From a virus (Duplodnaviria; Heunggongvirae; Uroviricota; Caudoviricetes): a stretch of 60,235 bases of DNA. Positions 5,461-21,010 of this stretch are shown here, piece by piece (within the stretch, counting starts at the first letter, position 1; each line of letters begins with the position of its first letter). The stretch lies in IMG/VR virus record IMGVR_UViG_3300045007_000064, positions 1 through 60,235 of that record; one strand, written 5' to 3'. The notes below the pieces were generated by a model. The model saw only the letters and a list, made by a program, of their open reading frames with translations, had not been told where the DNA came from and did no database searches. Both the position numbers and the translations under genes were made by a program.

Positions 5461-5461
5461 C

Positions 5462-5674: not shown

Positions 5675-5707
5675 TTCGGGTTCCTCTCCCTTGGTGATAC
5701 CTACAGC

Positions 5708-6428: not shown

Positions 6429-6444
6429 GTCATCATTCTACAAT

Positions 6445-6552: not shown

Positions 6553-6629
6553 AGCTCTATCTTAGCACACGGCTCGGGGAGAACGCAAGCGTGAATGCGG
6601 CGAGCGCGAGCAGCGCAAGAGTCAGGACA

Positions 6630-7082: not shown

Positions 7083-7099
7083 GACACCATTCTACAACA

Positions 7100-7130
7100 G
7101 AAAAGCCCCGGCGACTTTGCCGGGGTCTTT
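7100..7130 (-). terminator. intrinsic terminator
   Basis: ACCCCGGC/GCCGGGGC stem followed by TTTTCT. Confidence 0.8.
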
Positions 7131-7131
7131 C

Positions 7132-7419: not shown

Positions 7420-7450
7420 GACTTCAGTCTACGCTAGCCGGTCGATAGTG

Positions 7451-7639
7451 TCAAGTTCTATGACTGAACACAGCCGACACAATGGCAGTCTGAGTGAGGA
7501 TGATGGCGAGGACCCACAGCAGCGGCTCGATCACACTCAGGGCGATGAGCACGGCGAGCACGAGAGCAGCGACCAGCAGCACGATAGCGATGACCGCGTA
7601 CCACTCAATCTCTCGGATCACCTTCCAAAAGCGTTCCAT
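7451..7639 (-). CDS. small membrane protein
   Basis: long hydrophobic stretch; GGAGGAGG RBS. Confidence 0.75.
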   Translation of the reverse strand: MERFWKVIREIEWYAVIAIVLLVAALVLAVLIALSVIEPLLWVLAIILTQTAIVSAVFSHRT

Positions 7640-7641
7640 GT

Positions 7642-7824
7642 TTAGTCCTCCTCCTCTTGCGTGGGTGGGCTTTGCACGACAACTGAGGCCGTGTTAGCCT
7701 TCACGATGATTTCCTGAGTCACAATGTCCTCAGCCTCGTCCCTGCGGCTGGACGCCCAAAGTAGGGCGAACATGACCCCAAGGATGATGAACGCCCCAAT
7801 TCCCACGATGAGGGCTAGTTCCAT
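7642..7824 (-). CDS. small membrane protein
   Basis: N-terminal TM helix; leaderless TAGACT-6-ATG. Confidence 0.75.
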   Translation of the reverse strand: MELALIVGIGAFIILGVMFALLWASSRRDEAEDIVTQEIIVKANTASVVVQSPPTQEEED

Positions 7825-7840
7825 GACTCTAGTCTAGCAC

Positions 7841-7928
7841 AGAAAGGGCCGCGCTGACAAACAGAGAGAGGGAAGGGAGCCAGCGCGGCCCGACGCGGGG
7901 TGGCGGGCCAGATAGGCACCTCCCGCGT
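7841..7928 (-). ncRNA. candidate two-hairpin sRNA with a 20-nt anti-Shine-Dalgarno loop
   Basis: promoter TTGCGC(7963-58)-17-TAAGCT(7940-35); stem 1 ACGCGGG/CCCGCGU; stem 2 is 13 bp with a G.U that forms only on this strand; loop UCCCUUCCCUCUCUCUGUUU; U tract; no ORF. Confidence 0.7.
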
Positions 7929-7946
7929 ACTTACAGCTTACACGAC

Positions 7947-7975
7947 GAAGGCCCCGGGCGCAAACCCGGGGCCTC
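7947..7975 (-). terminator. terminator whose loop region contains the -35 box of the sRNA promoter
   Basis: GGCCCCGGG-TTTGCG-CCCGGGGCC. Confidence 0.8.
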
Positions 7976-7984
7976 GCGTGCCTG

Positions 7985-8386
7985 CTACCAGGCCGTGATC
8001 GTGACGACGGGGGTGACCGCCTGCCGGGGCGACTGGAACTTGTCGTACAGCTCGGCGTGCGCCAGGCGGACGCCCACCGCCAAGTCGCGCAGCGTGTCGG
8101 CGTTGGCCTCCGACAGCCCTGCCGTCTCGCCGTCCTCGTCCACGTTGCCGGTGAAGATGACGGGGCCGTACACCTTCGCGCCCATGAGCGCCACGACGAG
8201 GTTGACGGAATCGAACTCCTCGCCCTCGGCGTAGAGGAACTCTTCGTTGTGGTAGGACGCGAGGTCCTCCGACCAGTAGATCGGCTCGATCATGCCGCCG
8301 ACCGCGTGGCGGAGGACGGGGTACGACTCGCCCTCGACCGTCAACTCTTCGATGGTGCCGTTCGGGTTGACCTTGATGAAAAGCAT
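7985..8386 (-). CDS. DUF3846-like protein
   Basis: LRHAVGGMIEPI...YHNEEF; RBS AACAGAGAGAAAGGGAAG. Confidence 0.7.
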   Translation of the reverse strand: MLFIKVNPNGTIEELTVEGESYPVLRHAVGGMIEPIYWSEDLASYHNEEFLYAEGEEFDSVNLVVALMGAKVYGPVIFTGNVDEDGETAGLSEANADTLRDLAVGVRLAHAELYDKFQSPRQAVTPVVTITAW

Positions 8387-8432
8387 GTGCTTCCCTTTCT
8401 CTCTGTTGATACCAGTATAGACTATTCCGGGT

Positions 8433-8464
8433 AAAAAGAAAAGCCCCGATTTCTCGGGGCGATT
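8433..8464 (-). terminator. intrinsic terminator
   Basis: GCCCCGA-GAAA-TCGGGGC followed by TTTTCTTTTT. Confidence 0.85.
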
Positions 8465-8468
8465 CTTA

Positions 8469-8657
8469 TCAGACCGTCTCGTCTGCGAACTCGGAGGGGT
8501 CCCAGTCCTCGTCCTCCCAGAGTTCCTCCTGATCCTCGTCTGTCCAGGGTCGAACCTCTTCGGCCTCGTACCCGTCGTATAGCTGAGCCACTATCGCACG
8601 AGCGTGCGCCTCGTCCCGCGCCGTGATGAAATGTCCGTCAACCCAGAAGTCTCGCAT
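8469..8657 (-). CDS. small acidic hypothetical protein
   Basis: 18-nt RBS identical to that of 7985..8386; promoter TTGCAT-17-TATGCT. Confidence 0.8.
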   Translation of the reverse strand: MRDFWVDGHFITARDEAHARAIVAQLYDGYEAEEVRPWTDEDQEELWEDEDWDPSEFADETV

Positions 8658-8736
8658 GAGCTTCCCTTTCTCTCTGTTAGCACCAGCATACACCTATCAG
8701 GTATGCGATGCAAGCTTTCTGTGCTACACTGGACGC

Positions 8737-8925
8737 ATGAGCAAAAAGCATGAGCCGGATGCCGGATTCCGCATCCGCCAGGAACTCCGCAAGGGGAGCC
8801 GTACCAGCCCCCACGACACCAGGCCCAACCGCCAGCGTTCCCGCCAGGATGCAAAGCGAGCCGCGATCCGTGATTCGGATCGCGGTTTTTCTTTGCCCGG
8901 ATGCACGCAAGAGTACGCCCACTAA
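8737..8925 (+). CDS. 62-aa basic protein (MSKKHEPDAGFRIRQELRKGSRTSPH...KRAAIRDS); the only rightward gene in the cassette region
   Basis: leaderless TACACT(8725-30)-6-ATG. Confidence 0.7.
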   Translation: MSKKHEPDAGFRIRQELRKGSRTSPHDTRPNRQRSRQDAKRAAIRDSDRGFSLPGCTQEYAH

Positions 8926-8927
8926 AG
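8904..8927 (+). promoter_or_regulatory. 24-bp intergenic motif
   Basis: CACGCAAGAGTACGCCCACTAAAG. Confidence 0.8.
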
Positions 8928-8937
8928 CCCGAAGGCC

Positions 8938-9147
8938 TTAGTGCCCCTCGGGGTGGTATGCACTGTCGCAGTAGCACGGGGTCTTCCTGACCGGAGCCGA
9001 AGCCGGAGCGGGGTTGAGGTACGCGCTCGACACGTACGTGATATCAGCGAGCGAGTCCACAACGTGCGCGAGCGCGTCCGCCGCGTCGGCCTCACTCATG
9101 GGAGCGTCGGACGTGTCGATCTGGATGGTGATGGTTGCAGTACGCAT
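8938..9147 (-). CDS. hypothetical protein (cassette gene; C-terminal CxC..H..H)
   Basis: RBS AAGGGAGAGGAACCCGAA. Confidence 0.8.
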   Translation of the reverse strand: MRTATITIQIDTSDAPMSEADAADALAHVVDSLADITYVSSAYLNPAPASAPVRKTPCYCDSAYHPEGH

Positions 9148-9205
9148 TTCGGGTTCCTCTCCCTTGTGTTGATATCAGTCTACCCTATGCGGGCGATTGT
9201 GTCAA

Positions 9206-9550
9206 CTAGTACCCCAGCCACGCGTACAGCATGGCGGCGTCCAGGTACTCCGGGAGCGTGTCCCCATCGATGATCTTGTCCCCCAGGCCGTCGATCAGCT
9301 CGGAGACAGTGAACCCGTGGGCGTCGAGAATCTTCTCCACCCGCCACGTCGGGAGCATCCGGCCCACGCGCGTGACCAGGTTGGTGTACTCCGGCGAGCG
9401 CCCCCAGTACATCTCATCGTACCCGTCCGCCTGAGCCTGAGCCGCATCGCTGAGCCTGCCCACCCGCACCTCTTCGCGGGCACCGCTCTGGTGATACGCG
9501 GTGGCGGCGAGGGCAAGCGCCCGACTGGTGGCCTCTTGGTTGCTGTTCAT
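9206..9550 (-). CDS. hypothetical protein
   Basis: leaderless TTGACA-18-TAGGAT-6-ATG. Confidence 0.8.
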   Translation of the reverse strand: MNSNQEATSRALALAATAYHQSGAREEVRVGRLSDAAQAQADGYDEMYWGRSPEYTNLVTRVGRMLPTWRVEKILDAHGFTVSELIDGLGDKIIDGDTLPEYLDAAMLYAWLGY

Positions 9551-9567
9551 ATCTATATCCTACAACA

Positions 9568-9604
9568 GAAAAGCCCCGACTGTCAAGTGACAATCGGGGC
9601 GATT
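9568..9604 (-). terminator. terminator containing the downstream -35 box
   Basis: GCCCCGA stem followed by TTTTCT; TTGACA at 9586-81. Confidence 0.8.
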
Positions 9605-9613
9605 CCGGCGAGG

Positions 9614-9970
9614 TCAGGCGTCGATCAGCTCGGCGGCCTCCGACTTCTCGGCGTTGCTCTTCCGCGTCTCCGCGGCGGCCTTCGCGCGGCGGCGGCGGGC
9701 GAGGTAGTGCCCGTACTCGTCCAGGAGCGCCTGCGAGTAGCGACCGCGGGAGCCGACCGTGATCCCCTTCGCGGCGAGCTTGTCGGCGTTGGCACGCGCC
9801 CACGCGCGGATGTCGGACTCCTGCTGCTCCGCGACCTGGACGCGGACGTTGCCGATGGTCAGGTCCGCACCGGGGGTGATCGCGTCGGCGTCGAGCTTGG
9901 CGGCGAGCGAGCGCAGGTGCTTGGCGAGGTCGGCGTTGGACGTGTGCTTGATGTTGACGGTGGTACGCAT
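9614..9970 (-). CDS. Lsr2-like DNA-binding domain protein
   Basis: IRAWARAN...ITVGSRGRYSQALLDEY resembles the Lsr2 C-terminal RGR AT-hook domain; RBS AAAGGAAA. Confidence 0.75.
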   Translation of the reverse strand: MRTTVNIKHTSNADLAKHLRSLAAKLDADAITPGADLTIGNVRVQVAEQQESDIRAWARANADKLAAKGITVGSRGRYSQALLDEYGHYLARRRRAKAAAETRKSNAEKSEAAELIDA

Positions 9971-10098
9971 TGGTTTCCTTTGTTCGAAGTGATGGACTCT
10001 CTGTCCCTGTAGTAAATACATTACCCCATTCCGAAGGATTGTGTCAAGTCGATCTAAGAAAATCTTTCTTGATTCCGGAAGGCCCGAACCGCTCACGT

Positions 10099-10122
10099 CA
10101 CGCAAGAGTCCGCCCACTAAAC
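10099..10122 (+). promoter_or_regulatory. 24-bp intergenic motif
   Basis: CACGCAAGAGTCCGCCCACTAAAC. Confidence 0.85.
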
Positions 10123-10148
10123 GGAAAAGCCGGGATTTCTCCCGGCTT
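10123..10148 (-). terminator. intrinsic terminator
   Basis: GCCGGGA-GAAA-TCCCGGC followed by TTTT. Confidence 0.8.
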
Positions 10149-10153
10149 CCCGC

Positions 10154-10369
10154 TCAGACCAGCGCGCGACCCTCGCGGCTCATGTCCCACCACGAGAACA
10201 ACCCACCGCGGCTGTTCCGCTTGACTGCCGCCGTGATCGCGGCGTGGTCGTCCCCGTAGCGATCCGTCAACATGTCATGGTCGGAGGGCGAGACGTTGTA
10301 CTTCCGGTACGCCGCACGCTGCGCGTAGGTCAGTTCCCCGTAGGACTCGTCGTAAACCATCTTAGGCAT
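10154..10369 (-). CDS. hypothetical protein (cassette gene)
   Basis: RBS GGGAAAGGGAGG; promoter TTGCGT-17-TATACT. Confidence 0.8.
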   Translation of the reverse strand: MPKMVYDESYGELTYAQRAAYRKYNVSPSDHDMLTDRYGDDHAAITAAVKRNSRGGLFSWWDMSREGRALV

Positions 10370-10408
10370 TGGTGCCTCCCTTTCCCTTTGTTACTTACAG
10401 TATACGGC

Positions 10409-10443
10409 AAAAACGCCCTAGACGCAATGTCTAGGGCGCTTTT
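10409..10443. terminator. terminator with the -35 box in its loop region
   Basis: CGCCCTAGAC/GTCTAGGGCG stem with flanking A and T runs. Confidence 0.8.
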
Positions 10444-10451
10444 GGTTTCGG

Positions 10452-10658
10452 CTAGGGGAGAATCTCCCAGTCCCACTCGTCGTAATCGACGGCCACGGAC
10501 GTGAGCGTGTTGTCGAGGTCGAGGGCCACATAGGACTCATCCCCGATGAACGTCTCATCCCGGACGATCCCGACCAGAACGGACGGCGGCACGCCCTCGG
10601 CGCGCTTGCCGTAGTTGTCCTTGGCGGTGGCCTTGACGTGCTTTCCGATGTTGCTCAT
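10452..10658 (-). CDS. hypothetical protein (cassette gene)
   Basis: RBS GGGAAAGGGAGA. Confidence 0.8.
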   Translation of the reverse strand: MSNIGKHVKATAKDNYGKRAEGVPPSVLVGIVRDETFIGDESYVALDLDNTLTSVAVDYDEWDWEILP

Positions 10659-10733
10659 GGTTTCTCCCTTTCCCTGGAGTTATTACTATGAGCATACAAC
10701 AAAAACGCCCCGGATACAACCGGGGCGAGTTTG

Positions 10734-10826
10734 TTAGAGCATCGGCTCGCGGTGGGGGTTGTCCCTCCCCATCTGCGAGAGCATGAGCGCGAGGGTGATA
10801 ACCCCGGCGATGAGTGCGGCGATCAC
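10734..10826 (-). CDS. 30-aa membrane peptide MIAALIAGVITLALMLSQMGRDNPHREPML
   Basis: GTGA overlap with the upstream stop; followed by a terminator at 10700-10730. Confidence 0.55.
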   Translation of the reverse strand: MIAALIAGVITLALMLSQMGRDNPHREPML

Positions 10827-11200
10827 AGCGCCGCCACAATCGCCTGGATCGTGGCATCGCTCGGAATCTGCACGAACTTGTACGGCACCTTCGCGACGCA
10901 CTTCTCGTACGCCTCCGGGAAGGCCGACTTCATGAGGTCGTAGTCCGGCTTGGTCGCGTGCCGGAGGGAGGACAGCGAGGCGATGACCTGACCGCGCACG
11001 ACGATCTGTTCCTCGTCTCCCATCTCGGCGCGCAGCTCGGCTTCCAGCACCTTGCGCGTGCGCTCGGCGGCAGCGCCCGCGCGCTCGATGGTCTTGAGTT
11101 CTCCGATGCGCTTGACCTTCGCGAGCAGGTCGGCATCGTTGGTGACGTTGAGTCCGGGCTTGGTGTTCTTGTTCCGGCGCTGGGCGGTGGTGGTGGCCAT
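10823..11200 (-). CDS. hypothetical coiled-coil protein
   Basis: GAGGA RBS; promoter TTGACA-17-TAAGCT (11282-11254); alternative start 11212. Confidence 0.75.
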   Translation of the reverse strand: MATTTAQRRNKNTKPGLNVTNDADLLAKVKRIGELKTIERAGAAAERTRKVLEAELRAEMGDEEQIVVRGQVIASLSSLRHATKPDYDLMKSAFPEAYEKCVAKVPYKFVQIPSDATIQAIVAAL

Positions 11201-11302
11201 GAGAATCCTCATTCTCTAGTGGGAGTCCCCTTGTGGTGTGTCCCTGTACCTATAGCTTAGGGCATGTTCCCGCTAGTGTCAAGTCCCCCGCTCCCGGAGT
11301 CG

Positions 11303-11326
11303 AACGTAAGCATAATGGCACTAAAC
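11303..11326 (+). promoter_or_regulatory. 24-bp intergenic motif
   Basis: AACGTAAGCATAATGGCACTAAAC. Confidence 0.8.
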
Positions 11327-11366
11327 GGGCAGAGAAAAGCCCCCGCTGACCAGACGGGGGCGAATC

Positions 11367-11678
11367 TCAAAACGCCTCGTGAACCTCCGCGTCCAGCAGT
11401 CCAGCCGAGCGGGCGTAGACGCCGCGCTCCTTGGCCCAGGCGACCAGCTCCTTGTTCCGCGTGTTGCGGAAGGCCCCGAGGCCCTCAGGGGCGTCCTTGA
11501 CGCCGACGAGGGTTCCATCCGGCAGGGTGGCCTGCATGTAGCTGAGGTTCATGCCCGGGCGGACCCGGCGAGCGTTGGTGTCGTAGACGAGACCGGTGAG
11601 CCAGCGAACCTTGGTGACCTTGCCACCAGCGGCGATGAGTGCTGCGAGGGTCATGTAAACGGCGGGTGCAACGAACAT
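11367..11678 (-). CDS. hypothetical protein with a weak Lsr2-like C-terminus
   Basis: KELVAWAKERGVYARSAGLLDAEVHEAF; lacks the RGR motif. Confidence 0.65.
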   Translation of the reverse strand: MFVAPAVYMTLAALIAAGGKVTKVRWLTGLVYDTNARRVRPGMNLSYMQATLPDGTLVGVKDAPEGLGAFRNTRNKELVAWAKERGVYARSAGLLDAEVHEAF

Positions 11679-11777
11679 GATGTTCTCATTTCTCTTTTGA
11701 GTTACCAGGGCCGGTGTTTCCGACTAAGAACAATATACCAGGGTTCCAGGCATTGTGTCAACTTAAATACGAGAAAG

Positions 11778-11801
11778 ATTTAGTGCCTATATGCTTACGT
11801 G
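11778..11801 (-). promoter_or_regulatory. 24-bp intergenic motif
   Basis: CACGTAAGCATATAGGCACTAAAT. Confidence 0.8.
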
Positions 11802-11815
11802 TCCCCCGGAGGGGG

Positions 11816-12037
11816 TCACTCGAAAATGACCTTGCCCTTGGCCACCGCTTGCCTCCACTCGGCAGTGCCAGGGTCTAGTACCTCGCCCGTACGCGTGTTG
11901 ATTAGGGCTTCCGGCGCGTGTCCCGCGTCCGCTTGCGCGATGAGCGCGGCGCGATTGACCTTATTCAGGCGCATGCCACGGCCTATCAGTACGCCGACCA
12001 CGACGCACACGATGCCGAAAGCGATGAGCACAACCAT
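11816..12037 (-). CDS. small membrane protein
   Basis: N-terminal TM helix; leaderless TAAGCT-6-ATG. Confidence 0.75.
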   Translation of the reverse strand: MVVLIAFGIVCVVVGVLIGRGMRLNKVNRAALIAQADAGHAPEALINTRTGEVLDPGTAEWRQAVAKGKVIFE

Positions 12038-12055
12038 ATGTCTAGCTTACCAGAC

Positions 12056-12670
12056 TTAGGCGAGGTCGGCAACGTTGTACGAGTCGAACGCGCCCGCTCC
12101 CCAGTAGCGCCGCCGCCACACGACCCACGTCACGGCCTGCACGACCGCGGGGGACAGCGGCATGCCGTACTCACGCGAGAGGATGACGGACGCGCGGCGA
12201 TACTTGTCCGCGATTTCGTCATAGCGCTTGCGCGACAGCTTAGGCACATCGTTGGTCACCGAACGATCGTTGTGTGCCAGGCAGTACGCGTGCCTGTCAA
12301 TCGTCACGCCCTCCGCGCCGCCCGTAATGATGCTCAGGTAGAAGTTGTTGACCTTGAGACCGCCGAGCGCGTCGATAGTGCCCTCCGCAATGATCCGGCG
12401 AGCTTTCGCGAGGTTCGCACTGAGGTAGCCGGAGTCGAGGGTCCCACCGGACGCGAACATGCGCGCCGCGAGGTTGACGTTGTTCCCCCAGGAGTTGAGG
12501 GGAGACAGCGCGGCGAGCACACCGGCAGTCACGTGCACCGGGAGCGAGTGCTTAGCGGCGAACGCCTCAGCGATGAGACGAGCGTCCGCGTACCACGCGA
12601 TACCCTCAGCGATGAGGTCGGCGTCCGCAGAGCGGAAGACTGCCGTGATGTTGCGAGTGTGAAGAGCCAT
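12056..12670 (-). CDS. conserved phage protein, possible HhH-GPD glycosylase-like fold
   Basis: AALSP..W..N, LGGLKVNNF, VTIDRHA, VQAVTWVVWR; RBS GGGAAAGGGA; promoter TTGCAT-17-TAAGCT. Confidence 0.7.
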   Translation of the reverse strand: MALHTRNITAVFRSADADLIAEGIAWYADARLIAEAFAAKHSLPVHVTAGVLAALSPLNSWGNNVNLAARMFASGGTLDSGYLSANLAKARRIIAEGTIDALGGLKVNNFYLSIITGGAEGVTIDRHAYCLAHNDRSVTNDVPKLSRKRYDEIADKYRRASVILSREYGMPLSPAVVQAVTWVVWRRRYWGAGAFDSYNVADLA

Positions 12671-12780
12671 TGTGGATTCCCTTTCCCTTGGTGGCTGATA
12701 TCTACAGCTTACACCATGACGGGGGAGGATGCAAACCCTAATCCGAAACTAGTTCAAACCCGTATCCGCAATGCTCGTAC

Positions 12781-12804
12781 GTTTAGTGGCTAGACTCTTA
12801 CGTG
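12781..12804 (-). promoter_or_regulatory. 24-bp intergenic motif
   Basis: CACGTAAGAGTCTAGCCACTAAAC. Confidence 0.85.
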
Positions 12805-12849
12805 CTCCGGGCAGCAGAAAAGGCGACCCGCGTAGGGCCGCCCTTTCTG

Positions 12850-13182
12850 TCACGCGAACGGGTTGTAGATTGCTCCGGGATTTCCGCTGATCCGGCGAAG
12901 TTCCGCTTCGCGCTCGCGTGCGACCCGCGCGAAGTTCTCCCCGTACAGCTCTCGCTCCGGCTCTCCCGCGGCGATGTTGCGCTGAAGCTCCCGACGTGCG
13001 TTGTAGAGTGCTCCACTCATGACCCCGCCGATCACGTTGACCAGCGTGTGAGCCTCAGCGACCACGCGCCGCCTGTACTCGAACGGAACCTGAATAAGTT
13101 CCTTCGCCTGCGCGGGATGAATCCCGACACCGTATCCGCCCGCGTCGATGCTGGCCTGAAGTTCTGCGTCCGTATATTCCAT
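12850..13182 (-). CDS. hypothetical protein (cassette gene)
   Basis: RBS GGGAAAGGGAG; terminator at 12816-12848. Confidence 0.8.
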   Translation of the reverse strand: MEYTDAELQASIDAGGYGVGIHPAQAKELIQVPFEYRRRVVAEAHTLVNVIGGVMSGALYNARRELQRNIAAGEPERELYGENFARVAREREAELRRISGNPGAIYNPFA

Positions 13183-13268
13183 GATGCTCCCTTTCCCGGA
13201 GGTTGTATGTCCAGCATACACCATAGACACAGAAAAAGCGACCCGCATTACGCGGGCCGCTCATTCTG

Positions 13269-13676
13269 TCAGTCGTCCAGCCCCGTGAGGGTCGTCTCCC
13301 GACCGAAGGTCTCGAAGTACAGCTCCCGGGCGCGAACCCACTCGTCGGGGTCGTCCCACTCGCCATCGGACTCGATGCGGAAGTCCGGGGACTCCTCCCG
13401 GATGCGCAGGAGCGCGGCGCACACCACCACGTCATACGGCTCCCGGCCCGTCTTGCAGAAGTCCGAACCGCCCGACGCCGAGACCGAGAACGTCTCGTAG
13501 TCCTCGCCGTCCGCAGCCCAGCCGTTGAAACGGACCTCATCCGGCGTGAGGATCGGCTTGCCCTCACCGAGTCCATCCCCGATCTTGACGGCGGACCCCT
13601 CGATGATCTTGGCGATGTCCTCGATGACTTCGTTGCTCAGGATGGGCGTGCCCTCCCAATAGTGCGAGTATCCCAC
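13269..13676 (-). CDS. conserved phage hypothetical protein (MGYxHYW...FNG...FCKT.R.PYD)
   Basis: RBS GGAAAGGGAG; terminator at 13232-13262. Confidence 0.8.
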   Translation of the reverse strand: MGYSHYWEGTPILSNEVIEDIAKIIEGSAVKIGDGLGEGKPILTPDEVRFNGWAADGEDYETFSVSASGGSDFCKTGREPYDVVVCAALLRIREESPDFRIESDGEWDDPDEWVRARELYFETFGRETTLTGLDD

Positions 13677-13737
13677 GATGTTCTCCCTTTCCGGAGGTTG
13701 TTTGTTGATTACAGCTTACAGGAATGACAGCGAAGTG

Positions 13738-14112
13738 TCAAGCCTGCCGCTCGACGGCGAGAACTTCCACGGCCTCGAACCGGGCCTCCGAATCGGCATC
13801 CGTGGACGGGACGAACCAGCCCGCGCGGGTGCCGCGTGACTTGACGACACCGCTGCGCCCATCCACGAGGGTGATCTTGTCCCCCGCAGCGATGGTCAGG
13901 TGCCGCGCCATGATCCGCGCGTGCTCCCGGTGCAGCTCGGCGGTGTCGTAGTCCAGCCGATCCTGCGCGTTGTTGCGCTCGGTGCGGAGGTCCAGGTACT
14001 CATTCCCGGAAGCGGCACCACCGCTCTCCAGGTACTCCGTCATGGCCGACAGGGCGTCACTCACGCGCGCCTCCGACTCAGCGACCCTGATCCGCAGTTC
14101 TGCGTAGCTCAT
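13738..14112 (-). CDS. hypothetical protein (coiled coil plus SH3-like tail)
   Basis: RBS GGAAAGGGAAG. Confidence 0.8.
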   Translation of the reverse strand: MSYAELRIRVAESEARVSDALSAMTEYLESGGAASGNEYLDLRTERNNAQDRLDYDTAELHREHARIMARHLTIAAGDKITLVDGRSGVVKSRGTRAGWFVPSTDADSEARFEAVEVLAVERQA

Positions 14113-14188
14113 GTCTTCCCTTTCCGTGTGGCTGATATGGCCAGCTTACCACACATCGGAGCTAATGGGAAGTACCCTGCGCATCGGA

Positions 14189-14212
14189 GTTTAGTGCCAG
14201 TATGCTTACGTG
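14189..14212 (-). promoter_or_regulatory. 24-bp intergenic motif
   Basis: CACGTAAGCATACTGGCACTAAAC. Confidence 0.85.
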
Positions 14213-14221
14213 ATCGGCACA

Positions 14222-14414
14222 GCCAAGTGCCCCGGGCGTCCGTGTCAGAGACTTCCCGGGGCTGAATGGGACACCCACGCGCTCCGGCGTGGCATTCCTT
14301 GGTGACGTTTTTGCTACTCGCATGTGCACTGCGTTTTCGGGGCCGTCTCCCCCACACCCCAGTCCGAAGACTGGACGCACTAGGCCTAAGTGGTTTATCC
14401 TCCCCTAGTGGAGT
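14222..14414 (-). ncRNA. candidate structured ncRNA (~190 nt)
   Basis: promoter TTGCGG-17-TAAGCT (14449-14421); CACUAGG/CCUAGUG stem, C(UUCG)G hairpin 14359-74, GGGG/CCCC and CCACGC/GCGUGG stems, terminal GCCCCGGG stem. Confidence 0.6.
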
Positions 14415-14432
14415 ACTTACAGCTTACCGCAC

Positions 14433-14831
14433 TTAGGCCGAAACCGCAAGGGCGAAATCGAGGGCGTCCGAAGCGAACGCCTCCCGGGCGGCAGCATCCC
14501 CGAGGACGTAATCGTCCTCAAATCGGGAGGGGAACTCATCCGCGAAGTCGGAGAGTGCCACGGCAGGATCGAGGTCGTCCAGGCGACCGTGAACGGCGGC
14601 GAAGATGAGCCGGTACGCGCGGGGCTTGATGACCTCGAACAGTCCTTCGGACTCGTCGGGGCGGATCAGCCGCACCGCGTTGCAGATCAACTCGCACATG
14701 CCACGCATGTACTCGTCGTAATCCGGCTCCGGGAGGTCGGTCTCACCCGCCCAACCCTCGGCGGCGGCTTGGATGATGAGCTTGCCGCACGGGTCGAATG
14801 CGTGGACAAACTTGACCTTGGTAACGCTCAT
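14433..14831 (-). CDS. acidic hypothetical protein
   Basis: RBS GGGAAAGGGAG; TAAGCT promoter. Confidence 0.8.
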   Translation of the reverse strand: MSVTKVKFVHAFDPCGKLIIQAAAEGWAGETDLPEPDYDEYMRGMCELICNAVRLIRPDESEGLFEVIKPRAYRLIFAAVHGRLDDLDPAVALSDFADEFPSRFEDDYVLGDAAAREAFASDALDFALAVSA

Positions 14832-14891
14832 GATGCTCCCTTTCCCAAAGCTCTGTTGTTACCTACAGCTTACAGCACCCGAACCGCATTG

Positions 14892-15197
14892 TCAATGCAA
14901 GTCCTCGTACAGCCCGGCCACCTTCCGCAGCGCGAGCTTGGCATCCTCCACACGCTGATACTGCGAGGCGTACGGGTAGGCCTCCGTCCGGAGGTCGGTG
15001 TACGCCGCGTCGAGTTCCGCCATAGCGGCATCGAACTTGGCGGCATCGACCTTCGGGCCGACCGGCACGCCGTGGTCGCTCGCGTACTCCAGGATCGCGT
15101 ACTCATCGAAGTCGTCGTAGTCCTCGAACTCCACGATGACCGAATTGGTCAGGTCGGTGATCGAACCATCACCCGTGTTGACAACGTAAGTGCTCAT
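14892..15197 (-). CDS. acidic hypothetical protein
   Basis: RBS GAAAGGGAAA; TTGACA-17-TAAGCT. Confidence 0.8.
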   Translation of the reverse strand: MSTYVVNTGDGSITDLTNSVIVEFEDYDDFDEYAILEYASDHGVPVGPKVDAAKFDAAMAELDAAYTDLRTEAYPYASQYQRVEDAKLALRKVAGLYEDLH

Positions 15198-15226
15198 GAG
15201 ATTTCCCTTTCTCGAATACCTACAGC

Positions 15227-15418
15227 TTACCGCACGTCGGCAGGCTTGTCAACTGGCCACATGAACTCGTGCGCGTTGTCCGGGGTGATGCCGAACAGGT
15301 TGAGCATGTCAGCGGTGTTGTCCTCGGCGGGGCGCTCCGAAGCGACCGCACCCGCCATGACGGCGCAGAAAGCCGCACCGACCGCACAGGCGATGATCCC
15401 CAGGGTGATGATGTCCAT
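15227..15418 (-). CDS. small membrane protein
   Basis: N-terminal TM helix; starts 2 nt after the upstream stop. Confidence 0.7.
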   Translation of the reverse strand: MDIITLGIIACAVGAAFCAVMAGAVASERPAEDNTADMLNLFGITPDNAHEFMWPVDKPADVR

Positions 15419-15420
15419 GC

Positions 15421-15837
15421 TCAGGCCCCGTAGTCGAGACGGATGCCGCCGCCCAGGATGCCGACCGCACGCCCGAACTCTGGGAGGGCCGCCGCGGCCT
15501 CCCCGGCGAAGCACACGGCATCGAACTCCTCGAACGGCGAGTCACCCCAGCTCATGCCGCCGAAGGTCAGGAAGTACAGGGCATCGTTGCCGGGAATCTC
15601 CCACGACGCGACATACGGGTCTCCGAGGCGGGAGTCGTCGATGAACTTGACGCCCTCCACGATGGAAGCGATGAGGTCGTCCACGGCGGTCTCTTCGTCC
15701 TCGAAGAATCCTGCCGCGTCGATGTCATCGAGCTTCGCGGCGATCTGGTCACGGAAAGACTCCACAACCGCGCGAACGTCCTCGATGCTCTTGCTCTTCT
15801 CGGCAGTCAGTCCGCCGCCGATGTATGATGCGCCCAT
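15421..15837 (-). CDS. acidic hypothetical protein
   Basis: RBS GAAAGGGAGG. Confidence 0.8.
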   Translation of the reverse strand: MGASYIGGGLTAEKSKSIEDVRAVVESFRDQIAAKLDDIDAAGFFEDEETAVDDLIASIVEGVKFIDDSRLGDPYVASWEIPGNDALYFLTFGGMSWGDSPFEEFDAVCFAGEAAAALPEFGRAVGILGGGIRLDYGA

Positions 15838-15946
15838 TTGGGGCCTCCCTTTCTCTCTTACGCCTAGCTTACACCGCATCCGCATCAGAGTCAAATGCAC
15901 CTTACCGGCATATCCTCCGAACATGCGCGTATCGGGCATACGGCAT

Positions 15947-15970
15947 CACGCAAGAGGACTGGCACTAAAC
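15947..15970 (+). promoter_or_regulatory. 24-bp intergenic motif
   Basis: CACGCAAGAGGACTGGCACTAAAC. Confidence 0.85.
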
Positions 15971-16081
15971 AAAGAGGGGCCGGATTTCTCCGACCCCTCA
16001 CTAGGATTATTTTTCAACTAAATTTAGGTAAGATGGGTGGGTACCCACTAGGGCGGCGCGCGTGTCATGTCCGCATCCTGC

Positions 16082-16336
16082 CTAGTCGATGAACCGCTCG
16101 CGAACGCGCTGCGGCCCGTACTCGATCCACCAGGCCAGCGTGTGCGACTCGCCGGGGACCGCTTCGTGGTCCTCCCACGCCTCATCGGCATCGTCACCGC
16201 GCGACAGGTGCCACCACGGCGCGATGTTGTCGGGGTCGTCCTCGTACGAGGAATTGACCTCCACGAAAAGCGGGCACGGCTCCCCGTCTTCGTTGTGACC
16301 GGCGCAGAGGATGTAATCCGGCTCTTTGAGTGACAT
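16082..16336 (-). CDS. hypothetical protein (C..H..C...H)
   Basis: RBS CAGGGAAAGGGA; TTGACA-17-TAAGGT. Confidence 0.8.
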   Translation of the reverse strand: MSLKEPDYILCAGHNEDGEPCPLFVEVNSSYEDDPDNIAPWWHLSRGDDADEAWEDHEAVPGESHTLAWWIEYGPQRVRERFID

Positions 16337-16368
16337 GTGATTCCCTTTCCCTGGAATGTACTACCACC

Positions 16369-16848
16369 TTACCGCACGTTGGCCAGCGTGTCAACCTTGC
16401 GGTACGTGATGACGTGCGCGGGGTTGTACTTGGTCGGGTCGCACTTGTAGCAGGACCGATTGTTGCGCGGCTTGCGCCAGAATCGGTAGGTGGACACGTG
16501 ACCCGCGGGGCACGTTCCGACCCACGGCGCGGCTTCCGCTCGCAGGTTCGGCGCGTCGGTGGTGGCGGCGGTGGGGTTGGCTCCCAGCCGCAGGGCGATG
16601 ATCTTCCACGCGCGTCCGTGTCCCGCGGTGGGACCGGCAAGTGCGTGTGCAACCTCGTGACGAATGGTGTCCATCACCTGTTCGGCGGTACTCGCCTTGG
16701 TCATCGGACGCGAGAGCGTGATCGTCTTGTCCCGGTAGTTGCACGATCCCAGACGCTGAACGGCATTGTCCCAGCGGAACTTCCACTCCAGCGGCAGGTT
16801 TGCGGCCATGACTCCCAGCGCCATGACGCGGGCCTCTTCAAGATTCAT
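16369..16848 (-). CDS. SprT-like zinc metalloprotease
   Basis: LGSC...ITLS...IRHEVAHAL...GHGRAWK and a C-terminal C..H/CxxC finger; RBS GAGGGAAGGGAACCC. Confidence 0.85.
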   Translation of the reverse strand: MNLEEARVMALGVMAANLPLEWKFRWDNAVQRLGSCNYRDKTITLSRPMTKASTAEQVMDTIRHEVAHALAGPTAGHGRAWKIIALRLGANPTAATTDAPNLRAEAAPWVGTCPAGHVSTYRFWRKPRNNRSCYKCDPTKYNPAHVITYRKVDTLANVR

Positions 16849-16912
16849 CGGGTTCCCTTCCCTCGTGTGATACCAGCATACCCTATCCGCACCGCATCTG
16901 CAAGCTGGAATC

Positions 16913-16936
16913 CGCGCAAGAGTCCTGCCACTAAAC
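16913..16936 (+). promoter_or_regulatory. 24-bp intergenic motif
   Basis: CGCGCAAGAGTCCTGCCACTAAAC. Confidence 0.85.
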
Positions 16937-16940
16937 GGAG

Positions 16941-16992
16941 AAACCCCCGGAGCGCGCGGGGGAAAGGGGAAAGGGAGGCGCGCCCCGGGGGT
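16941..16992 (-). terminator. 15-bp hairpin with a 20-nt anti-SD loop CUCCCUUUCCCCUUUCCCCC
   Basis: stem 16978-92/16943-57 with one G.U on the minus strand, just after the stop of 17006..17353. Confidence 0.75.
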
Positions 16993-17005
16993 GGTTTGTG
17001 TGCGC

Positions 17006-17353
17006 TTAGCGCTGGAAGTCGAGGTCGTAGATTTCGACCTCGCGGGCGTTCTCGACCAGGCGCAGGATCGCGGCCCAGTTGGTCTTGCCCTTCTGACCGG
17101 TGACGTACCAGTTCTCGCCTGTCTCGCGCGGGTTCTCGGTCCGCATCGCGAGGTACTGATACGTGGTCCGCCCGCTGCCGGGGAACTTGGCCTCGATGAG
17201 GACCTTACTGCCGGGTTCCGGCTCATCGTACTTCGATGCTGAAGCCTCGGCCTCAGCGATCCGGGCGAGGACCAGCTCACGCTCGGCGGCGAGACGGTCG
17301 GCTTCAGCGCGCAGCTCAGCCGCGCGGCTCTTGGTGGATCGGATGCTTGCCAT
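17006..17353 (-). CDS. hypothetical protein
   Basis: leaderless TTGACA-18-TAGGAT-6-ATG. Confidence 0.8.
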   Translation of the reverse strand: MASIRSTKSRAAELRAEADRLAAERELVLARIAEAEASASKYDEPEPGSKVLIEAKFPGSGRTTYQYLAMRTENPRETGENWYVTGQKGKTNWAAILRLVENAREVEIYDLDFQR

Positions 17354-17362
17354 GATGTAATC

Positions 17363-17590
17363 CTACTCTCTCGGCGGGCTGGTTGTCAAGCCCGCTCGCC
17401 ACGATTTCCGGTAGAAATCGCGCGGTTCGTTGTGGTTCGGGTAATCCTCGCTCGCGAGCAGAGAATCCAGGTAGTAGATACCGGCATCGGTAAGCCACTC
17501 CCCATCGATGAGCGGTACGTCCTCTTCGGCATGCCGGATGTCCCCGATCACGCCCGCTTTGAGCGCGACCAGGGGCACCTCATCCGGCAT
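17363..17590 (-). CDS. hypothetical protein
   Basis: TGATG coupling with the upstream gene. Confidence 0.7.
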   Translation of the reverse strand: MPDEVPLVALKAGVIGDIRHAEEDVPLIDGEWLTDAGIYYLDSLLASEDYPNHNEPRDFYRKSWRAGLTTSPPRE

Positions 17591-17916
17591 CACTGGCTCA
17601 GGTCCGTCCAGTCGCGGCGGTAGCCGATCCGGAACCGACTCTGCCAGCGCTCCATCGGCTCGCCCTTGACGATGTAGGTGCCGTCCTTGCGGAGCGTGAT
17701 CGTCTTGATGGGACCGTCCGGGTCCGGCTCGTACGTCTTCTCGCCGTCGTCACCCCAGGCGTGCCCCGGCGTGACCACGGTCACCTTGTCGGCCTGCACG
17801 TCCAGCTCGCGCCCGTTGCGGCGCACGGCGATGACCGTGTACGCGCGGTGCAGTCCACCGAGCGCGGTGGAGTAGGTGGCACCCGTGCCGACCTCGATCT
17901 GAGTTTCAGTGTCCAT
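17590..17916 (-). CDS. hypothetical protein
   Basis: RBS CAGGGAAAGGGAG; TTGCAA-17-TAAGCT. Confidence 0.8.
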   Translation of the reverse strand: MDTETQIEVGTGATYSTALGGLHRAYTVIAVRRNGRELDVQADKVTVVTPGHAWGDDGEKTYEPDPDGPIKTITLRKDGTYIVKGEPMERWQSRFRIGYRRDWTDLSQ

Positions 17917-17949
17917 CTGTCTCCCTTTCCCTGGAGTGTTGACTACAGC

Positions 17950-18111
17950 TTACCGCATTGCCTCGCGATTTGCAAGCATGCGTTGCTTGACCTGCGCGTC
18001 AGTCGGCGCAGTCCATCCATGGAACCCCACCGCACGATGCCACAGGATCGAGTGCTCGTGCTTGCCCGCGCCGCACCAGGTGCAGCCATACGGGTTGAGG
18101 TAGACGTTCAT
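17950..18111 (-). CDS. 53-aa CxxC...H protein
   Basis: leaderless TTGACA-17-TACACT-6-ATG. Confidence 0.75.
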   Translation of the reverse strand: MNVYLNPYGCTWCGAGKHEHSILWHRAVGFHGWTAPTDAQVKQRMLANREAMR

Positions 18112-18155
18112 GACTCCAGTGTACGGCATCCGCATCCGCATGTCAAATCGGACCG

Positions 18156-18179
18156 CACGCAAGAGTCCGGGCACTAAAC
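18156..18179 (+). promoter_or_regulatory. 24-bp intergenic motif
   Basis: CACGCAAGAGTCCGGGCACTAAAC. Confidence 0.85.
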
Positions 18180-18218
18180 CCAAATGCCCCGCATCCGCAG
18201 ATACGAGGCATTTAGGTG

Positions 18219-18247
18219 TTGACTTTTGGATTTCGTTGCCCTATACT
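18219..18247 (+). promoter_or_regulatory. near-consensus rightward promoter facing leftward genes
   Basis: TTGACT-17-TATACT followed by a CAGGGAAAG leader but no start codon. Confidence 0.65.
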
Positions 18248-18286
18248 AGAGATATCAGCAAGAACAACTACACAGGGAAAGCGGGA

Positions 18287-18505
18287 TCAGGTCCGAACGG
18301 CGGCGGCGGTGATCCCCTGGAAGCGGAAGTTCCGGACCGCGGCGAACGCATCGGCGGCGTTCAAACCGGTGAGGTCCTTGTCCTTCTTCTCCTTCCGGTC
18401 ATAGACCGTGAGGACGGTTCCATCCGGGGCCTTGACGCTCCAGGAGGTCGAGTCGGACAGGGGCTTGCTGGTTCGGCGGTCCTTACCGCTTCCGTTCACT
18501 GACAT
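18287..18505 (-). CDS. hypothetical protein
   Basis: leaderless TACGGT-6-ATG. Confidence 0.7.
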   Translation of the reverse strand: MSVNGSGKDRRTSKPLSDSTSWSVKAPDGTVLTVYDRKEKKDKDLTGLNAADAFAAVRNFRFQGITAAAVRT

Positions 18506-18517
18506 GGCTCTACCGTA

Positions 18518-18712
18518 TCAGGCTTGCGGTTCGGTGTCAAGCGAGTGGGTGAACTTCTCGTCATCGTACTCGACGTACTGCTCACCGTACTCATTCTTGA
18601 CGGTCACACGGATAACGTCTCCGGTGTCGTCCACGCCGACCAGCTCGCCGGTCAGGCTGATAGCCTTCTCGCCGTTGTCTCGGCGGGTCACGGTTACCTT
18701 AGTCTGAGTCAT
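18518..18712 (-). CDS. hypothetical protein
   Basis: leaderless TAGGAT-6-ATG. Confidence 0.75.
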   Translation of the reverse strand: MTQTKVTVTRRDNGEKAISLTGELVGVDDTGDVIRVTVKNEYGEQYVEYDDEKFTHSLDTEPQA

Positions 18713-18724
18713 CCCGGTATCCTA

Positions 18725-18973
18725 TCAGGCCTTGAGTGCTTTGTCTACCGCGGTTAGACACTTGCGGCACACAACGGTTACGGTCTCGCCGTCTAGCACT
18801 ACACCGAACGGTCGCCAACTCACCGTGCCGTCTCCCCCTTGAACTTCACCCGCGGTTGCCTTACAGGCCCCGCATCGTGCCGTCTCATTCAGGCCGTATA
18901 CCGGCAGGCCTGCGGTTTCCAGTAGTCGTACATCTCGTGCCGTTTCGAGATAGTGTACCTCAATATGTCTCAT
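18725..18973 (-). CDS. zinc-ribbon protein (CGAC...CRKC)
   Basis: leaderless TAGGGT-6-ATG. Confidence 0.75.
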   Translation of the reverse strand: MRHIEVHYLETARDVRLLETAGLPVYGLNETARCGACKATAGEVQGGDGTVSWRPFGVVLDGETVTVVCRKCLTAVDKALKA

Positions 18974-19006
18974 ACGGTTACCCTATCAGACATTTCGCTG
19001 CGTGAT

Positions 19007-19780
19007 TTACGGTTCTACGCGCAGGCCGGTTTCTTCGAGGTTCTGGAGTGCCGGGTAGGTAATCTCGCCACGGTTGCGAACCTCGCCGGTTTCCCGTGCG
19101 AACGCGCCGAACGCGCTCTTGAACACGCCGTCCCGCTTGCCACGGTTGAACAGGCCGTCCTTGCCTCGACCGGTTGGCATCCACTCGGGCCGCACGGTTC
19201 CCAGTGCCGTCTGTACGGTTTCGACCGCACGCGCTACGGTCTTGCCGTTCGAGTCGAAGTAGCTCATCCGCACGGTTACGGTTTCACCCGCGGTTACCTT
19301 CCGGGCCGGTCGCGGTCGCACGAATCCGAGTACGTCCGTGCCGTACCGCACCCGTTCGTGTACGCCGTCTGCGAGCTGGATGCCCTGAGGCTTGCCACTG
19401 AAGGTCTGACCCTCCACGGTTCGGAAGCTTCCGTCCGCACGGAGTTCGGTTACCACGCCGACATGCGGTTGACGGTCCCACTCGCCGGGGTCCGCGCTGA
19501 AGTTGAAGAACACGATATCGCCTACCCGCGGCTTACGGTACAGACGGTTCCGGGTTGTGTAGTAGGCCAGGGCCGCAACGGTTGACTGGAATGAGACTTC
19601 CGGCGCGGTTCCGAACGCATCGGTGAGGATACGGTTGACGAACGAGCCGTTCCATTCCGTGCCCTCGTATGTCCGCGGGCTGAATGCGCTCCGCTTCTCG
19701 GGCTGTGCGTGGTAGCCAACCTGCCGTTGTGCGGCCTCGACAATCTTCGCCGGTAGCGCTCGCCGCATCCTACGGTTCAT
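19007..19780 (-). CDS. CHAP-domain protein lacking the catalytic Cys, with a degenerate PG-binding C-terminus
   Basis: IVEAAQRQVG...WNGSFV...GDIVFF...PHVGVV...TVEGQT. Confidence 0.75.
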   Translation of the reverse strand: MNRRMRRALPAKIVEAAQRQVGYHAQPEKRSAFSPRTYEGTEWNGSFVNRILTDAFGTAPEVSFQSTVAALAYYTTRNRLYRKPRVGDIVFFNFSADPGEWDRQPHVGVVTELRADGSFRTVEGQTFSGKPQGIQLADGVHERVRYGTDVLGFVRPRPARKVTAGETVTVRMSYFDSNGKTVARAVETVQTALGTVRPEWMPTGRGKDGLFNRGKRDGVFKSAFGAFARETGEVRNRGEITYPALQNLEETGLRVEP

Positions 19781-19952
19781 TGAAGCTGTCCTTCCACATC
19801 TTGGTCAGCACGGTTACAGCCGCGTCATCCTGAGTCTCACCCTGGATGGCGAGAATGGTCTCGCTGAAGTCTAGCAGGGATTTAACCTCCGTGCTGTTGA
19901 ACCTCTCACGGTTCGCTTGCCGGATCAGGGCGCGGGCGAACTCAGGCTTCAT
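19770..19952 (-). CDS. hypothetical protein
   Basis: leaderless TTGACA-18-TAGAAT-6-ATG. Confidence 0.75.
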   Translation of the reverse strand: MKPEFARALIRQANRERFNSTEVKSLLDFSETILAIQGETQDDAAVTVLTKMWKDSFNEP

Positions 19953-20115
19953 CCGTGGATTCTACCGTACGAGCGGTTTCGCTGTCAAGGACTCGCTGGA
20001 GGTCACCCCAGAGTGCTCGGAGGTTGACCAGCTCGGCGCGGGTAGACGCGGTTGCCGCGGCGCGCTCAATGCTGTGCTGCATTTCGCGCAGACGGTTCAG
20101 GTTCTCACTGCTCAT
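19942..20115 (-). CDS. 57-aa helical protein (MSSENLNRLREMQ...)
   Basis: GAGGTG RBS; fills the gap between neighbours. Confidence 0.65.
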   Translation of the reverse strand: MSSENLNRLREMQHSIERAAATASTRAELVNLRALWGDLQRVLDSETARTVESTDEA

Positions 20116-21010
20116 CCTCGATCACCTCCGCCTCAACGGTTTCGGCCTCGCCCGCCTCAACGTCCGCAACGTGCTGGAGAATCTTGGCCCGTTCCATCTG
20201 GCCCTTGCGTAGCTTCTCCAGACGCTTACGGATTTCCTCGGCGTTTTCGTTGACGGTTACCTCAACCTTAGTCTCAACCTCAATGGCTCCGCGGTTGCCG
20301 GTACGGTCCAGCAGCGAGTTGGCTGCACCGAGTCGGACGGATTCACTCTCCGCGGTTGCCGCTAGCTCTTCGAGAATGGCGGCGGCTGCGGGAGCGGCAG
20401 ACTGTAGACGGTTGCGAGTTAGCTGGGCCGCGCTGATCTGGATCGCCGGGGATCGACCCGCGCGCCGTGCGTGGAGTCGGCACATGCCCGCGGTATCGGT
20501 TGAGCCGTCCGACCACTGCCAGCATCGGGTACCGTCAGCCTTGACGGTTGAGCATCGGGTCGGTACATTTACCAGACGGGTTTGGTACAGATCGGCGTCC
20601 GGTCCGAGTGCGCGCATCTCGTCCTGCTGGCGCATGTAGGTGCGCGTGACCTTGAGAACCCACGTCGGTGCGAGGGAGGTGGAGTCCTCCGCGAGCAGGA
20701 GGCGAAGGCCGGAGAGATAGTCGGAGTTGTAATCTTCCGGGTCTTCGAGTAGCTTGGTCTTGGAGAGTGCCTGAGCGGCAGCTAGCATTTCCGCACTCAC
20801 TACCTGAATGTAGCCGGTCGGCATTCCATCGGTATCAAAGACTACGTTCCACTGAGCCTTATTCTGCTTGATGACTCGGCGGTTCTCGTAGGTGTCCTCT
20901 ACCACACCTCGTTCGATTTCTTCGAGGCCCCATTCAGACAGGTTCGGCAGTAGGCCCGGGGGAGCTTCGATCTGTAGCTCGGCGGGTTCGCCTGACTCGA
21001 TTTCCTTCAT
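20105..21010 (-). CDS. putative terminase small subunit-like protein
   Basis: HGGxSTG-type C..C..C..H module (RCSTVKADGTRC...CRLH) plus ESVRLGAANSLLDRTG and a coiled-coil tail. Confidence 0.55.
   Translation of the reverse strand: MKEIESGEPAELQIEAPPGLLPNLSEWGLEEIERGVVEDTYENRRVIKQNKAQWNVVFDTDGMPTGYIQVVSAEMLAAAQALSKTKLLEDPEDYNSDYLSGLRLLLAEDSTSLAPTWVLKVTRTYMRQQDEMRALGPDADLYQTRLVNVPTRCSTVKADGTRCWQWSDGSTDTAGMCRLHARRAGRSPAIQISAAQLTRNRLQSAAPAAAAILEELAATAESESVRLGAANSLLDRTGNRGAIEVETKVEVTVNENAEEIRKRLEKLRKGQMERAKILQHVADVEAGEAETVEAEVIEDEQ

Follow-up and report, generated by a model that had tools for sequence, protein, structure and literature searches.

A terminator with a long pyrimidine-only loop recurs behind a small leaderless early gene in related phages and is a candidate anti-Shine-Dalgarno element

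The window (the whole stretch of DNA that was analysed, 60,235 nucleotides) represents the initial 60 kb of a virus record of IMG/VR (IMGVR_UViG_3300045007_000064; 171 kb), which belongs to a large Microbacterium phage. The DNA of the locus is 83-85% identical to that of the Microbacterium phages Zooman (OK040793) and Big4 (ON637770), the genomes of which are both about 192 kb in length; the phage Cece (OP068343) is a more distant relative. On the minus strand between ~4 and ~20 kb, small early genes form an array, many being equipped with a sigma-70-type promoter and a terminator of their own, and 18 promoter-like sites are found in this early region against 4.0 expected. The early genes are of two kinds: in leaderless genes the -10 box is located directly before the ATG, whereas the others possess a leader of ~20-25 nt with a purine-only Shine-Dalgarno sequence (SD).

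The gene P0001 (ORF 17006..17353, minus strand) encodes a protein of 115 aa. It is preceded by the promoter TTGACA-N18-TAGGAT (17360..17389, minus strand), which agrees with the consensus at 10 of 12 positions and ends 6 nt before the ATG, so that the P0001 mRNA is predicted to be leaderless. The same layout precedes the homologous ORF in Zooman, Big4, Cece, the IMG/VR contig G001 and the soil-metagenome contigs L024/L021/L031 and L030. The AlphaFold model of P0001 (mean pLDDT 77) is composed of a long N-terminal helix and a small beta domain. The sequence has no match in Pfam or Atlas and corresponds in PHROG to families of unknown function only; the Foldseek search of the model on the PDB gave nothing at E <= 0.001, the best Z in VIA-align was 5.3 with most matches covering the N-terminal helix only, and the homologue search in viral contigs returned none. 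The proteins linked to the hairpin described below share 26-55% identity between distant lineages.

In the deposited annotations of Zooman (gene 3974-4552) and Big4 (gene 4765-5364) the start of the homologous gene is an upstream GTG overlapping the previous gene. An internal ATG (4211 in Zooman, 4999 in Big4) is preceded there by a conserved TTGACA-N18-TATGAT-N6-ATG, and the homology to P0001 begins at this ATG. Judging from this arrangement, the short form starting at the internal ATG is probably made in both phages, alone or in addition to the long one.

A hairpin (16943-16992) follows the TAA of the ORF 17353-17006 after a gap of 13 nt. According to the sequence and the fold, it is formed, all on the minus strand, by a 5' arm of 15 nt (16978..16992), an apical loop of 20 nt, CUCCCUUUCCCCUUUCCCCC (16958..16977), which consists of pyrimidines only (13 C and 7 U), and a 3' arm of 15 nt (16943..16957). 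The stem contains 13 G-C pairs, one A-U pair and one G.U pair, the U of which is provided by the 3' arm; on the plus strand this pair turns into a C/A mismatch, which makes the hairpin specific to the minus-strand RNA. The hairpin is continued by a U-rich tail UUCUCCGUUU (16933..16942, minus strand), which is interrupted, as in other terminators of the early region, and has the same letters in G001 and in the metagenome variants L021/L024/L031/L033. Folded with RNAfold in a context of 86 nt, the hairpin has -39.5 kcal/mol (z = -4.5), a value reached by 0 of 200 shuffles. A 15-bp stem with one strand-specific G.U pair and a 20-nt loop just after the stop of 17006..17353 is what the sequence-only reading had described, and folding reproduces it in each of these respects.

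The next -35 box lies ~40 nt downstream of the hairpin, and this placement is alike in the six lineages considered below. A GC-rich stem-loop with a U-rich tract, located between a stop codon and the next promoter, has the attributes of an intrinsic terminator, and on these sequence features the hairpin 16943-16992 is almost certainly the terminator of the small early gene. Its loop is predicted to be accessible, since a loop of C and U only cannot pair with itself; in each of the five sequences that were folded, both the MFE and the centroid structure leave it unpaired. Viewed on the plus strand, the 21-nt purine run 16958-16978 is the longest homopurine/homopyrimidine run of the 171-kb record. 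The possibility that this run serves as the ribosome-binding site (RBS) of a plus-strand ORF, 16991-17242, was considered and rejected: the ORF runs antisense to a conserved gene, the C/A mismatch would fall within the stem, and the run varies freely in relatives.

The end of the U-rich tail overlaps with a copy of the 21-nt inter-cassette motif TTTAGTGNCNGNACTCTTGCG (16915..16935, minus strand), which is conserved behind the homologous hairpins of Zooman, Big4, Cece and G001. With <=3 mismatches allowed, the window contains 9 copies of the motif where 0.04 would be expected; they occur in both orientations, usually just after a terminator, and the other eight sites are at 5397, 6614, 8906, 10101, 12782, 14190, 15949 and 18158. 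Because of this excess and of its preservation in relatives, the motif is probably bound by a regulator of the early cassettes. The promoter of the next cassette, TTGCAG-N17-TATGCT (16875..16903, minus strand), was read by eye, its -35 hexamer being too weak for the promoter listing. This cassette contains the SD-led gene of a SprT-like protease with the start at 16848. In Zooman and Big4 two extra genes (10/11 and 12/13) separate the hairpin from the protease cassette, whereas in the window this cassette is directly next to the hairpin (the region 16336-16848 compared with Zooman genes 10-12); cassettes are therefore gained or lost at terminator-promoter junctions.

The length of the loop is unusual for the region. 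Between 5 and 24 kb of the minus strand, the loops of the other terminator-like hairpins measure 3-7 nt, in line with the earlier remark that most terminators here are much shorter in this part. Strong tailed hairpins with a long loop are only three on the minus strand of the early region (6453-6493, 7846-7891 and 16943-16992), and the loops of all three are pyrimidine-rich. The former two belong to a unit at 6445-6552 and to a putative two-hairpin sRNA at 7841-7928, respectively, which are located in the same early region and on the same strand as 16943-16992. All three share the strong terminator stem with a long pyrimidine-rich loop, but the units 7841-7928 and 6445-6552 are ORF-free and have their own promoters, whereas the hairpin 16943-16992 stands directly behind a conserved coding gene. 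The 3' stem arms of the hairpins of these two units bear the -35 box of the next, leaderless promoter.

Both of these terminators are conserved in Zooman (homologues of 7846-7891 and 6453-6493, both minus strand, at 12384-12434 and 13900-13942) and in Big4 (12952-12998 and 14448-14492), and the first one (7841) also in Cece (12063-12111) and in other contigs; long-loop terminator homologues are found at 62209-62253 and 64855-64905 in G001 and at 7836-7880 (minus strand) in L019. The CUCUCUGU-containing loop of the 7841 hairpin is kept with the stem completely replaced, and the 6453 loop is identical in three phages and measures 21 nt in G001. In contrast, the loop sequence of 16943-16992 evolves faster than those of the two ORF-free units. 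The sequence-only reading had stressed that its 20 nt equal the loop length of the 7841 hairpin; this is true in the window but coincidental, as the homologous loops of relatives range from 10 to 23 nt.

The unit composed of a leaderless promoter, an ORF of ~110 aa and a terminator with a long C/U loop is found in six lineages, namely this record, Zooman/Big4, Cece, G001 and the soil-metagenome groups L021/L024/L031/L033 and L030. The relatives were gathered by tblastn of phage records and by a scan for the 21-nt inter-cassette motif, from which the matches in L016, L022, L034 and L035 (low-GC contigs) and in L008, L009 and L023 were set aside as unrelated. This recurrence, as established by sequence comparison, is new. 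The homologous hairpin is always located 3' of the P0001 homologue and always possesses an open loop: 20 nt in the window (16943-16992), 19 nt in Zooman (4565-4613), Big4 (5378-5426) and the group L021/L031/L033 (1195-1241 in L021), 23 nt in the variant L024 (1463-1513), 17 nt in L030 (4156-4204), 17 nt beyond a bulged stem extension in Cece (5290-5339) and 10 nt in G001 (51119-51156). A second small hairpin with a C/U-only loop is present in the 3'UTR of Cece and G001, and a second unpaired C/U tract in that of L024.

The stems of these hairpins differ in sequence. RNAalifold nevertheless retains 15 pairs, among which 6 display double compensatory changes, and each of five 3'UTRs folded yields the stem with the open loop (z from -4.4 to -5.7). 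The loops vary among the lineages both in letters and in length (10-23 nt), while 96 of their 102 bases are pyrimidines (one sequence per lineage) and the rare purines are located at the loop edges. The conservation of the loop, named earlier as a way to refute its role, was examined with a divided result: the letters are not kept, CUCCCUUUCC being present only in this window and in no relative, but the composition and the single-stranded state are kept in all six lineages. The loop is very probably under selection, as far as the alignment of these lineages allows one to judge. It probably has a function, because a long C/U-only loop is retained in six lineages while its letters change.

It could be supposed that the hairpin is a terminator only, in which the loop, a simple sequence prone to slippage, is tolerated or kept under weak constraint (such as the avoidance of competing folds) and has no regulatory target. 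The loop is indeed built of C(3-5)U(2-3) repeats, and the near-identical variants L021 and L024 differ in it by exactly one UUCC unit (19 vs 23 nt), as slippage predicts; the loop therefore seems to evolve by slippage, within a pyrimidine-only constraint. However, drift should bring purines, transversions and shrinkage, which is at odds with the pyrimidine content retained next to rewritten stems. Most other terminators of these phages manage with loops of 3-7 nt. Moreover, an intrinsic terminator is weakened by a long loop, the retention of which thus calls for a reason. We consider a terminator with no further role to be unlikely.

The preservation of composition and single-strandedness rather than of sequence would also suit a low-specificity pyrimidine binder. 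The loop could then be a pyrimidine-tract site for a protein which controls the stability or the fate of the transcript, either a host or phage binder of single-stranded RNA (such as ribosomal protein S1 or one of the cold-shock or KH type) or the protein encoded by the linked ORF, and the SD complementarity described below would be incidental. The link between the ORF and the loop, kept across lineages in spite of the divergence of the proteins, fits such a site. On the other hand, the linked protein shows no RNA-binding family or fold (none in Pfam, and the structure searches are weak and unspecific), the two other C/U-loop hairpins of the region have no linked ORF, and the loops are C-rich with C runs of 2-5 mirroring the G runs of the SDs, rather than U-rich. 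A protein site thus seems improbable to us.

The sequence GGAAAGGGAG, the complement of the 5' half of the loop, has 7 copies in the window against 0.12 expected. Six copies are located on the minus strand, 5-7 nt before the starts 10369, 10658, 13182, 13676, 14831 and 17916, and the seventh is the loop itself in the plus-strand reading. The earlier statement that a sequence of the loop is the exact complement of the RBS of these six genes is thereby borne out at every one of the starts. At 5 of the 6 sites the match lengthens to 11 nt (GGGAAAGGGAG). Examples are the SD of the gene starting at 10369 (10376..10386, minus strand), which represents the class, and that of the gene starting at 17916 (17921..17931, minus strand), an 11-nt perfect complement of the loop that would reside with it on the same long transcript if no terminator intervenes. 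Other members of the class are located before the starts 10658, 12670, 13182, 13676, 14112, 14831 and 16336.

Compared with 20 leadered early SDs (SD sets were compiled by a simple selection rule and then hand-pruned), the loop of 16943-16992 is able to form 9-11 contiguous Watson-Crick pairs with 10 of them. These ten make up the GGGAAAGGGA[G/A] class, with duplex energies from -16 to -22 kcal/mol. The mean energy of the loop-SD duplex amounts to -17.0 kcal/mol vs -10.5 kcal/mol for the 3' tail of the host 16S RNA (range -9.4 to -12.6). For three other SDs the 7841 loop is the best partner (10-11 nt, about -23 to -24 kcal/mol), and the 6453 loop is weakly best for the GGGAGAGGAA SD class.

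The significance of these matches depends on what is preserved on shuffling. With the loop bases shuffled, p is about 0.02-0.05 in the window and 0.05-0.23 in Zooman and Big4; when the shuffles preserve the run lengths (C-run/U-run), it is 0.15-0.43 in the window and 0.06-0.89 in relatives. Since the latter values are not significant, the exact match follows from the C(3-5)/U(3) runs of the loop set against the G(3)/A(3) runs of the SDs. Run structure alone is thus sufficient to explain the exact SD match, as a terminator with no target would also allow. Shuffled loops have on average -15 kcal/mol with the SDs; any C/U loop pairs fairly well with purine-only SDs. The proposal that each RBS class has its own anti-SD RNA holds as a description of the window, where the three long loops divide the SD classes roughly in this manner, but a dedicated RNA per class is not supported: the exact CUCCCUUUCC/GGAAAGGGAG match is absent from relatives and is at chance level once run lengths are kept.

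The types of runs in the SDs vary from phage to phage, the AAA-type being dominant in the window, the AA-type in Zooman and the GAGAG-type in Cece. As read from the sequences, the run structure of the loops and that of the SDs differ between the phages in parallel. In the double-centred 4x4 matrix of loops against SD sets, the assignment of each loop to its own phage ranks first of 24 when scored by energy and second of 24 when scored by longest match, the minimum possible p with four lineages being 0.04. The uncentred cross-phage matrix shows no diagonal, and the Big4 loop fits the SDs of the window better than its own. Taken as sequence evidence, the centred matrix hints that the loops track the RBS repertoire of their own phage.

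Many of the short leaders form weak hairpins (-3 to -7 kcal/mol) in which the SD purines are placed in a loop of 6-8 nt. Here a CUCC, UUCC or GGG element is paired with the 3' edge of the SD or with a CCC after it. Such folds are observed before the starts 17916, 16336, 14831, 13676, 13182, 10658, 9147, 6109, 5674, 5025 and 4732. By analogy with the 6C RNA, leader loops displaying the SD would allow loop-loop contacts (PMC6486639). RNAcofold runs with the hairpin and the leaders paired the U tail instead and are uninformative in this respect, as the program cannot represent pairing between a loop and a strand.

Our tentative reading, held with a little less than even confidence, is that the terminator loop acts as a C-rich anti-SD seed on the SD-led early mRNAs of the phage. 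The leaderless early transcript (promoter 17389-17360, ORF 17353-17006) would end at the hairpin. Selection would keep the apical loop long, single-stranded and purely C/U, and presumably accessible in vivo. The loop could then pair with the purine-only SDs (GGGAAAGGGA[G/A] and relatives) that other early genes carry in their short leaders; a large number of these SDs are predicted to be displayed in small leader-hairpin loops. The pairing may take place in trans, or in cis on a longer transcript from the 17916 cassette, and would lower 30S binding or expose the mRNA to decay, with a resulting change in translation. Leaderless genes would be spared, the carrier mRNA included, which has no SD for the loop to block since the carrier gene is leaderless in every lineage. 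The loop of G001, only 10 nt in length, is a counter-point to this reading, and in order to act stoichiometrically on numerous abundant early mRNAs the 3' fragment would itself have to be very abundant or stable.

The loop might instead be confined to the cis contact, that is, pair with the SD 17921-17931 on the long transcript of the 17916 cassette in a 5'-3' UTR interaction, limiting translation or triggering decay. A precedent is known for icaR (PMC3868564). The perfect 11-nt complement (-22 kcal/mol) is situated on the same strand ~1 kb further upstream, and the listing of terminator-like sites has no entry in this interval. In Zooman and Big4, too, the homologous ORF is preceded by an SD-led gene, the exact match being 8 nt long. 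In Cece, however, the two upstream genes of the homologous locus are leaderless and offer no upstream SD, and its C/U loops are still kept; besides, the internal leaderless promoter before the ORF in all lineages means that much of the loop-bearing RNA would lack the SD. A purely cis-acting element appears to be quite unlikely.

Another conceivable target is the mRNA of the host. The loop would then be a general C-rich anti-SD decoy dampening SD-dependent host translation in favour of the leaderless phage genes, on which the phage relies heavily in its early region. C/U loops do pair with any G-rich SD; but the loops contain no conserved CCUCC, the best match to the canonical GGAGG, and fit the unusual GGGAAAGGGA-type SDs of the phage itself better. 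We therefore regard host mRNAs as a very improbable target.

The anti-SD reading can be extended to the whole early region, though we consider this wider scheme doubtful. The three pyrimidine-loop RNAs (two stand-alone sRNAs and the mRNA terminator) would jointly cover the repertoire of purine-only SDs and act as a translational switch, the SD-led cassettes being silenced as the RNAs accumulate and the leaderless genes being still translated. The loops and the SDs would co-evolve by changes in their C/U and G/A runs.

To our knowledge, little work has been devoted to post-transcriptional control by RNAs that phages encode, above all in actinobacteriophages, the hosts of which have no Hfq. If the loop is an anti-SD seed, the terminator of a phage mRNA doubles as a riboregulator, and the SD-led and leaderless modes of translation would be separated within one early region. 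The relatives Zooman, Big4 and Cece were isolated within SEA-PHAGES and are in culture on Microbacterium hosts, which makes the idea directly testable. Should the anti-SD reading turn out to be wrong, a loop that is ~95% pyrimidine across lineages with such divergent linked proteins would still need explaining.

Among known systems, RNAIII of Staphylococcus aureus is, by analogy, the closest to the phage hairpin in functional design. It is a 514-nt coding RNA (delta-haemolysin) with 14 hairpins and proven targets, in which the UCCC loops of the C-rich hairpins H7, H13 and H14, the latter being the last one, pair with the SD regions of several mRNAs (PMC3861533). The likeness consists in an mRNA with a 3' hairpin loop addressing many targets, which in the case of the phage are candidates only. 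In contrast to the phage element, RNAIII is a host RNA with a short UCCC box; the phage element, which has no sequence relationship to it, comprises one hairpin (two in some relatives) with a C/U loop of 10-23 nt. In the icaR mRNA the anti-SD motif UCCCC of the 3'UTR pairs with the SD of its own 5'UTR (PMC3868564). This is a pyrimidine anti-SD motif in a bacterial 3'UTR, and the phage loop, likewise a pyrimidine tract of a 3'UTR, is a candidate for such pairing. However, icaR acts in cis, whereas the short phage transcript is leaderless and the cis option exists only on a putative longer transcript, and not in every relative.

The 6C sRNA of Actinobacteria (Rfam RF01066) binds by its C-rich loops to G-rich, often loop-displayed sequences near the RBS and requires no chaperone (PMC6486639). 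It shares with the phage hairpin the host phylum and the C-rich hairpin loops, but it is a stand-alone sRNA conserved in sequence and fold, while the phage element is an mRNA terminator; the 13 nt between the stop codon and the stem leave no room for a promoter, hence the hairpin is not an ORF-free unit of the 6C kind. The RsaE/RoxS sRNAs of Firmicutes possess several C-rich regions that pair with SDs and block translation initiation (PMC4409812); unlike the phage hairpin, they are stand-alone, host-encoded and conserved in sequence. The Rfam cmscan of 4000-21000 with E up to 10 gave no family at 16943-16992, 6C (RF01066) included, and the RsaE model has an insignificant match elsewhere in the region (10363-10442, E = 3.1). 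Separately from the hairpin, the ORF-free stretch at 14352-14414 (minus strand) of the window matches the full model of the Pistol ribozyme (Rfam RF02679) with 42.2 bits against the gathering score of 34.5 (E = 6e-5).
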